NCBI GenBank assembly: GCA_964016885.1
Contig: OZ024742.1
Location: 222,146,001 to 222,210,000, forward strand
DNA from: Eledone cirrhosa
Lineage: Eukaryota
DNA: 64,000 nt
Direction: 5' to 3'
The first letter of the stretch is position 1. Every line of letters starts with the position of its first letter. The notes under the pieces are model-generated. The model had not been told where the DNA came from. It did no database searches and saw only the letters and a list, made by a program, of their open reading frames with translations. Position numbers and translations under genes: made by a program. Below, piece after piece: positions 62,405-63,346 of the stretch.

Positions 62405-63339
62405 TAAACAATTAAGTTAAAAATGTACATCCACATATGTATACTGAAATACTAGTATGCATATGAATACACACACGTGTACATATGTAGATGTACCGAG
62501 TTTTTCACTGGACACTTTACTGTGAGTGTCCAGCTATTCTGTATGTAAACACACAGACAAACCGGTTTTTAGAGTCATACTGGTTTTCGAGGAAACACCT
62601 TTCCTCTATTCTCCAGAAAGCCAGACAAGGAATATTGGACTAGTTTCGATGTTGTTACATCTCATCAGCAATATTTACCTATCTTCCGGCCTTTCTAGAG
62701 AATCGTAAAAGCACATATCGTTATATGCTTTTTCTATGAAAATTAGTAGTGGGCAGACTAATTTGCATAGAGCGTGAGTACGTACCGGTACATTTTTAAC
62801 TTAATTGTTTAAGCGTCAGTCATACAAAAGTGAGTTACAAACGAAACGAAATTTAATTTCGTTTCGTTATTTGTTTTTATCGTCTCCGCTGAACCGGTAC
62901 GTACTCACGCTCTATGCAAATTAGTCTGCCCACTACTAATTTTCATAGAAAAAGCATATAACGATATGTGCTTTTACGATTCTCTAGAAAGGCCGGAAGA
63001 TAGGTAAATATTGCTGATGAGATGTAACAACATCGAAACTAGTCCAATATTCCTTGTCTGGCTTTCTGGAGAATAGAGGAAAGGTGTTTCCTCGAAAACC
63101 AGTATGACTCTAAAAACCGGTTTGTCTGTGTGTTTACATACAGAATAGCTGGACACTCACAGTAAAGTGTCCAGTGAAAAACTCGGTACATCTACATATG
63201 TACACGTGTGTGTATTCATATGCATACTAGTATTTCAGTATACATATGTGGATGTACATTTTTAACTTAATTGTTTAAGCGTCAGTCATACAAAAGTGAG
63301 TTACAAACGAAACGAAATTTAATTTCGTTTCGTTATTTG

Positions 63340-63346
<7 letters not shown>
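62405..63346. mobile_element. Family D HHR element: 466 bp monomer, partial tandem and 385 bp inversion
   Basis: Arms 62405-62789/62893-63277; 62788-62880 = 63254-63346; flanked by (TA)n. Confidence 0.92.
63007..63051 (+). ncRNA. Canonical minimal type I hammerhead ribozyme (mirror copy 62631-62675 minus)
   Basis: AATATTG-CTGATGA-GATGT(AACA)ACATC-GAAA-CTAGT-C-CAATATT; GUC cleavage triplet. Confidence 0.93.

Follow-up and report, generated by a model that had tools for sequence, protein, structure and literature searches.

How does a short repeat that carries a hammerhead ribozyme motif and no credible open reading frame (ORF) come to lie in two opposed, identical arms inside a (TA)n tract, and what moves it there? 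The locus that raises this question lies in a 64-kb window (the whole stretch of DNA analysed here, 64,000 nt) of a 3.0-Gb genome (G000). Its parts are listed below by window coordinates, with unit positions numbered from 62881.

58980–62296, plus strand: neighbouring 5′-truncated Penelope-like element (PLE), outside the unit, with an ORF (58980–59909) containing a C-terminal GIY-YIG-like region
62297–62404: (TA)n target, left side
62405–62792, minus strand: inverted arm, 0.83 unit (unit 397 down to 10), whose outer end is the proximal start site
62615–62686, minus strand: hammerhead copy of the inverted arm (Rfam HH9)
62788–62792: 5-nt microhomology at the arm–arm junction, common to both arms
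62788–63346, plus strand: main arm, 1.2 units (unit 374–466, then 1–466), whose outer end is the distal start site
62881–63346, plus strand: full 466-bp monomer
62913–62924, plus strand: octamer block, with ATGCAAAT at 62914–62921; 5′ arm of a predicted hairpin
62937–62947, plus strand: partner arm of the octamer hairpin, the second-longest block common to four aligned sister units
62954–62961 (unit 74–81), plus strand: putative TATA-like motif GCATATAA, its ATATA core kept in the sister family
63007–63051, plus strand: type I hammerhead, with stem I at 63007–63013/63045–63051, CUGAUGA at 63014–63020, stem II at 63021–63034 and the palindromic helix III at 63038–63043; predicted cut after 63044 (GUC)
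63272–63277 (unit 392–397), plus strand: proximal fixed 3′ end, putative reverse-transcription start site 1
63278–63346, plus strand: “tail” between the two fixed ends, 69–74 nt; its distal end, 63346, is putative start site 2
63306–63334, plus strand: 13-bp hairpin in the tail
63347–63611: (TA)n target, right side

The features listed in a preliminary description, which was drawn from the letters alone, are all present. The 93-nt direct repeat (62788–62880 and 63254–63346) is 100% identical at a spacing of 466, the octamer at 62914 and the TATA-like motif at 62954 were both found (with an inverted copy of the octamer at 62761), and the terminal palindrome corresponds to the hairpin at 63306–63334. 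The two arms that had seemed identical by eye (62405–62792 and 62890–63277) are 100% complementary, over 388 nt and not the 385 nt first given. The lack of a credible ORF also holds, as the longest ATG-started ORF in the circular unit is 19 aa on the plus strand and 50 aa on the minus strand; G and C make up 170 of the 466 bases. What does not hold is the reading of the 93-bp repeat as a circularly permuted junction. The repeat is where the main arm happens to start (unit 374), inner ends being spread unit-wide, and it is a variable 5′ breakpoint only. Because the window copy has one hammerhead per strand, it cannot release a unit-length RNA by double cleavage; a read-through transcript is predicted to form a 388-bp hairpin, and the copy is likely a two-armed insertion product and a dead end. 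No tRNA was found in the 64-kb window, and Rfam miRNA matches in it are generic hairpins below threshold.

The unit belongs to a large and young family. A 40-nt piece of the 3′ hairpin has 6,659 exact matches in the genome and a 26-nt ribozyme-core pattern has 7,903 (0 for either reversed control), and extrapolation from the first 100 places listed suggests ~2–3 thousand loci. A search with the whole unit returned 183 matches in the best 40 of 399 candidate places, the full-length ones at 97–100% identity; family matches are dispersed over many contigs, and subfamilies diverge from the window copy by up to ~7%. The window monomer is one of 35 full-length genomic matches with the top score (itself counted) and falls in the youngest sampled group, in agreement with the recent insertion proposed at the outset. 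Units of 466–470 bp follow one another head to tail, in arrays that reach about 31 units; copy number and tandem arrays were among the checks that the preliminary description had proposed. ORF-free joining of this kind was seen in all 125 merged stretches, a set drawn partly from best-score searches (biased to full units) and partly from lists ordered by position along contig C1. In the position-ordered set, divergence between units is 0.34% inside a locus and 2.7% across loci.

The outer ends of these insertions fall at two sites, one proximal (unit 388–400, mostly 392 or 397) and one distal (466), which lie ~70 nt apart and delimit the tail. We collected 84 inverted insertions, five of which were dropped because of a stretch edge or gap. 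Among the 79 complete ones, 75 have one proximal and one distal end (39 distal/proximal, 36 proximal/distal), four have one other end, and none has two alike ends. Single-arm complete copies carry a few-base inverted piece in 11 of 42 cases, always of the complementary end, and lack one in the other 31. A TA-type repeat of at least 10 nt lies beyond 160 of 165 outer ends, a proportion to be read with the fact that the end-scan pattern itself required six A/T. Inner ends are scattered across the unit, with some excess near 400–430. At junctions without an insert, overlaps of at least 3 nt, which BLAST may inflate, occur in 27 of 56 cases compared with 6.4% at random, and bases have been added at 19 of 75 junctions. 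Simple twin priming of the L1 type was considered and rejected, since the inner end of one arm is unmatched to the start of the other.

5′-truncation, partial tandems and inverted 5′ copies are all found among the family's insertions, and an inverted 5′ copy, a one-ended tail and (TA)n targets are hallmarks of PLEs (PMC8557442, PMC3846280). This Penelope-like insertion signature, which the preliminary description had missed, explains the whole layout of the window copy. The right TA tract also contains, standing alone, 9 nt of the distal end of the neighbouring PLE in inverted orientation (63372–63380), possibly an abortive insertion and one case among the 165 ends scanned.

PLEs are abundant in the same genome: two PLE-like protein queries gave 80,339 and 34,549 candidate places, and intact young ORFs are numerous. 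We assigned elements as Nematis-like or Neptune-like by known motifs and by the order of domains given in PMC8557442 rather than by a tree. In a Neptune-like family both ends were resolved in 14 of 17 stretches, and all 14 pair one proximal with one distal end (tails of 43 or 58–59 nt). In a young Nematis-like family the ends are mixed in six of six cases, and the tail of about 68 nt is close to the 69–74 nt of the retrozyme. The autonomous elements that bear this signature encode reverse transcriptase (RT) and GIY-YIG-like proteins. The rule of one proximal and one distal end is qualitatively known already for PLEs; in the literature searched, it was neither counted nor shown for any retrozyme. 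Among side observations, the short palindrome at 41633–42028 is an insertion of the end of the young Nematis-like PLE, again proximal on one side and distal on the other. More palindromic insertions, flanked by TA and containing hammerhead-like cores, lie at 14806–15087, 22606–23234 and 55425–55700 and probably represent another PLE-type family. A very young Neptune-like PLE (L185:2–3232) has 150 scored matches identical over 150 aa and ORFs to about 1,218 aa, and its full-length copies form a tandem cluster at G000 C28:42004516–42061437. A near-perfect ~300-bp palindromic element beside (AG)n is present in two copies (63653–63952 and 15422–15877), in which a core scan found no hammerhead motif.

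We looked for a partner among four families: the neighbouring Nematis-like PLE, the young Nematis-like PLE, a PLE joined to an array, and the young Neptune-like PLE. No terminal sequence common with the unit was found in these three Nematis-like families and one Neptune-like family, which were taken from tens of thousands of candidate PLE loci. At one locus the 3′ end of a PLE ORF is joined to an array, in one of 30 copies of that PLE family. A GAGT 49 nt before the distal end, which the unit and the young Nematis-like tail have in common, was dropped as a candidate, being absent at that spacing in the sister family described below. The neighbouring PLE (58980–62296) is Nematis-like; its C-terminal ORF is open, its 3′ region is long and rich in microsatellites, and it has a hammerhead-like motif of its own at 62165. 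A Pfam search with its ORF (58980–59909) gave no significant family. No similarity was found between its end and the unit. It only supplies the TA tract, and the retrozyme sits in the tract at its end.

Comparison of the arms bears on the RNA that was copied. In six of 68 testable loci, compared with 58 expected with random partners, the arms differ at a minimum of two diagnostic sites, and some of the six reflect alignment noise at an indel while one is a clear two-haplotype locus; both arms of a locus usually come from one haplotype. The ribozyme cleavage site is crossed by 128 of 154 arms, both arms are longer than one unit in 31 of 75 loci, and inner ends show no accumulation at the ribozyme cut (two of 210 lie within 3 nt of it, with 3.2 expected). 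A cleaved linear monomer cannot have been the template, and a circle or an uncleaved multimer could. Together with arrays of ~31 units, these data agree with the earlier suggestion of a young retrozyme copied from circular or multimeric RNA. Very long two-armed arrays that are nearly uniform (26 units with one difference, 20 units with none) favour a circle. However, 12 of 26 long arrays carry variants common to some but not all units, which need a multimeric template or later exchange at the DNA level, and one monomeric circle alone is therefore insufficient. The argument that private array-wide variants prove a single circle was rejected, as the best example was found at seven loci. In run X4 (organism B), one 495-nt contig wraps round the unit with four A-to-G differences; a tandem DNA array would loop likewise.

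The ribozyme had been described as a perfect GUC hammerhead. The motif and its GUC are indeed at 63007–63051, but helix III is only the palindrome ACUAGU (predicted duplex −6.2 kcal/mol), the weak type. Rfam HH9 matches 62996–63067 and 62615–62686 with 38.9 bits (E 6.6e-8), which is below the gathering score of 52 and is unreported at that threshold. The CUGAUGA core is invariant in 61 of 61 stretches, with a GUC (38) or GUU (23) triplet. As a hammerhead with a weak helix III, it is predicted to need a dimer; an amphibian hammerhead of this type is described as cleaving efficiently only as a dimer (PMC7229834). The circular unit is predicted to fold at −156.5 kcal/mol with 67% of its bases paired (z −11.6, 40 shuffles) and with stems that close across the unit boundary, and the minus-strand fold is also strong (z −8.8). 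Across 28 copies, 97.7% of cells pair, and two-sided changes occur in 47 cells (0 of 500 shuffles); these fall in six pairs, including an A-U/U-A change in hammerhead stem II, a number that 307 of 500 shuffles reach, and because the copies compared are related the changes amount to a handful of events. G-U and A-C changes number 18 and 13 (p 0.47), with no significant strand bias. Elsewhere, from about 117911500 of G000 C1 (L042), a tandem with a 310-bp period has a different hammerhead-like core and a weak match to the family profile.

A sister family of ~470 bp, colinear with the unit at 57–58% identity, is also present in the window (29881–30627 and 417–702) and is frequent in the flanks of fetched stretches; it too is found in ORF-free tandems. 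The octamer block, part of the 3′ hairpin and the ribozyme core are kept in it, the core with a GUA triplet and a basal U-U in stem II. When nine family copies were aligned with four sister units, the longest common block was the 12-nt octamer block, and the two ribozyme core blocks were 9 nt each. The octamer, which alone is expected in about 1–2% of shuffles, is intact in 111 of 118 family stretches and 16 of 17 sister stretches, and because its pairing partner varies in other sister copies, this suggests that its sequence is constrained beyond pairing. Promoters that combine an octamer with a TATA box exist, the TATA-like motif lies 35 nt downstream of the octamer block, and a transcription start just before the ribozyme would be plausible.

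Comparison with host promoters was less clear. The proximal sequence element (PSE) of the host, derived with the U5 snRNA genes at 3463–3585 (plus strand) and 5081–5203 (minus strand), has TCAGT at −55 to −58 in eight of eight genes (U1, U2 and U5). The best such site in the unit scores 9.1 bits, a score equalled in 19 of 200 shuffles (five of 200 with a long matrix); it lacks TCAG and varies among subfamilies, and the result leans negative. An octamer lies within 500 bp upstream in two of 13 host snRNA regions. In most host snRNA promoters (L266–L288; window 3400–3420), motifs resembling AATTAAAT and TATAT lie near −90 and −30, respectively, and the two U5 genes sit in a ~1-kb inverted duplication (2771–3806 and 4894–5909, 92% identical).

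One lineage has lost the octamer. It comprises 69 units at seven loci with differing junctions (G000 C1:30.83 Mb, C1:85.31 Mb, C1:322.55 Mb, C6:54.09 Mb, C18:30.95 Mb, C410 and C744), in which three clustered A-to-G changes remove the octamer and keep the predicted stem as G-U pairs. Six of the loci are identical at all compared sites and differ from the parent subfamily by the three changes only, and the seventh has a few more differences at one arm end. The octamer, as judged from sequence, is likely functional but, since this lineage reached seven loci, not essential. An origin of the three changes by ADAR editing is a guess: array-wide private changes were A-to-G in six of nine cases in a first set, and seven A-to-G compared with five T-to-C in a larger set of 14 (p 0.58). 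The evidence on the preliminary claim of a self-transcribing unit with an snRNA-type octamer promoter is mixed. The octamer's conservation among genomic copies and its place in the longest block common to the two families speak for it, and the doubtful PSE, the few snRNA regions with an octamer and the octamer-less lineage speak against it.

As far as sequence can tell, the family has the testable features both of a metazoan non-LTR retrozyme and of a non-autonomous element moved by a PLE. Metazoan non-LTR retrozymes (Cervera and de la Pena 2020, PMC7229834; Li, Clavereau and Pollet 2026, 10.64898/2026.07.22.740005) are likewise non-coding, AT-rich tandem repeats of a short unit that contains a single type I hammerhead, and they too have thousands of copies, a highly paired predicted circle and PLEs in the same genome; at 466 bp, the unit is slightly above the range of 150–450 bp in the former and inside that of 51–972 bp in the latter. 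Two fixed ends and inverted arms are features of our family that neither source describes in the parts consulted. The link to PLEs also differs in kind. For published retrozymes it comes from co-occurrence and similarity to pseudo-LTRs (Li et al. 2026, 10.64898/2026.07.22.740005, argue a PLE origin from co-occurrence and pseudo-LTR trees and suggest local growth of arrays), whereas for our family it comes from the signature at both ends of arrays. Xenopus retrozymes are related to PLE pseudo-LTRs according to that source; no pseudo-LTR relative of our family was found among the four PLE families. Newt satellite 2 and axolotl HHR_Amex1 resemble the family in a helix III made of a closing pair and a palindromic loop (PMC7229834) and in internal promoter-like motifs. 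The newt satellite 2 promoter is of the snRNA type according to PMC2220036, whereas the family has a TATA-like motif and no clear host PSE. Plant LTR retrozymes, with two LTRs, type III hammerheads, PBS and PPT, are unlike the family, which is type I, tandem and without an LTR pair round a unique core. The newt promoter reportedly contains an octamer as well.

EN+ PLEs (Poseidon PAc, PMC11167929; Neptune, Nematis, Hydra and Naiad, PMC8557442; Adineta Penelope, PMC3846280) have in common with the family partial tandems, an inverted 5′ copy, a one-ended tail, a (TA)n target, two internal start sites and a hammerhead. The family differs from them in a tail of about 70 nt rather than 30–40 nt, in having no ORF, in start sites 230–300 nt downstream of the ribozyme cut, and in arms of up to many units. 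According to PMC11167929, a PLE protein cut and extended both strands, started at two internal RNA sites matching the genomic tail, is predicted to be a dimer, and in vitro did not need hammerhead cleavage for insertion. Self-priming on an antisense template has been proposed for inverted one-tailed PLE insertions (PMC3846280).

We conclude that the 466-bp non-coding hammerhead repeat in (TA)n is probably a non-autonomous retrozyme moved by the RT/GIY-YIG enzyme of a PLE, and that both strands of the target are likely primed by a PLE-like enzyme on a single RNA, either a circle or a multimer. In the mechanism that we propose, an array would be transcribed, probably with the aid of the internal octamer and TATA-like promoter upstream of the ribozyme. 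Two tandem hammerheads would pair via their ACUAGU palindromes and excise a unit-length RNA, which would be ligated into a highly paired circle that, having a single weak hammerhead, would be stable. The PLE protein, probably a dimer, would nick both strands of a TA tract and start two cDNAs on the same RNA, one from the distal site and the other from the proximal site; each cDNA would go round the template for a variable distance, and the cDNA ends would be joined via microhomology or a few added bases to give head-to-head arms.

The strongest competitor keeps the PLE-driven element and replaces the circle with a long, linear, uncleaved multimer, arrays growing by unequal crossover and circles being a by-product or absent. 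We regard this as possible but doubtful. The variants that recur with partial periodicity in some units of an array (12 of 26 long arrays) fit it, as do the weak type of the hammerhead, the dispensability of cleavage for PLE insertion in vitro (PMC11167929) and the cleavage in vitro of only one of nine Xenopus retrozyme dimers (10.64898/2026.07.22.740005), and an uncleaved template likewise predicts no pile-up of 5′ ends at the cut. However, some very long two-armed arrays are nearly uniform, the family has kept the ribozyme core and stem II pairing and the sister family the core, and predicted stems close across the unit boundary. That the unit is instead a solo pseudo-LTR of an autonomous PLE, with arrays as its truncation products, is improbable: the relation of Xenopus retrozymes to PLE pseudo-LTRs (Li et al. 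2026, 10.64898/2026.07.22.740005) and the locus where a PLE ORF runs into an array would suit it, yet that junction is found in one of 30 copies of its PLE family, and head-to-tail units without an ORF make up all 125 merged stretches, in arrays of up to about 31, and tandems of the sister family.

Explanations that dispense with reverse transcription fare worse. Palindromic insertions, tandem arrays and the signs of DNA-level exchange within arrays could all belong to a satellite or to a mobile element that moves as DNA (foldback, MITE or Helitron-like), the hammerhead being carried along. However, no insertion has the same unit end on both outer sides, as terminal inverted repeats would, the inner ends vary, and the autonomous elements with the same signature encode RT and GIY-YIG-like proteins; this reading is largely refuted and very improbable. 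An assembly artefact (a fold-back chimera) had been a concern from the start, as the perfect 388-nt inverted arms lie beside long TA runs and no listed public contig spans the junction of the window copy. It is hardly credible given inverted insertions at 79 independent loci, whose junctions differ and whose ends obey a strict rule. In run X1, moreover, contigs contain other joints of the inversion type, as well as ends that pass into TA at the distal site.

Within the preferred reading of a retrozyme moved by a PLE enzyme, we entertain tentatively, as less likely to be right than wrong, a more specific picture of a promoter-carrying circular RNA parasite: an enzyme dimer would grip one circle at two sites ~70 nt apart, the octamer hairpin would drive transcription, and one A-to-G circle, possibly edited by ADAR, would have seeded the seven octamer-less loci. 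Both strands of the TA tract would be primed, with copying rolling round the circle from both, giving one short and one long end. If this is true, one edited circle can be used as a template several times, either directly or by way of RNA copied from it.

PLEs have been proposed to move animal retrozymes because the two co-occur and have ribozymes in common, and the arrays have been suggested to arise by local amplification of DNA. Because the PLE signature is on both ends of whole arrays, the arrays are at least partly made at insertion. The strict rule of ends and the common haplotype of the arms fit two-strand priming on one RNA and supply exact start sites for an in vitro system, and the conserved octamer hairpin suggests an internal promoter that can be tested, one outside amphibians if the host is itself not an amphibian. 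If the circular-parasite picture is true, the insertions of this family would record the mechanism of PLE integration in vivo.
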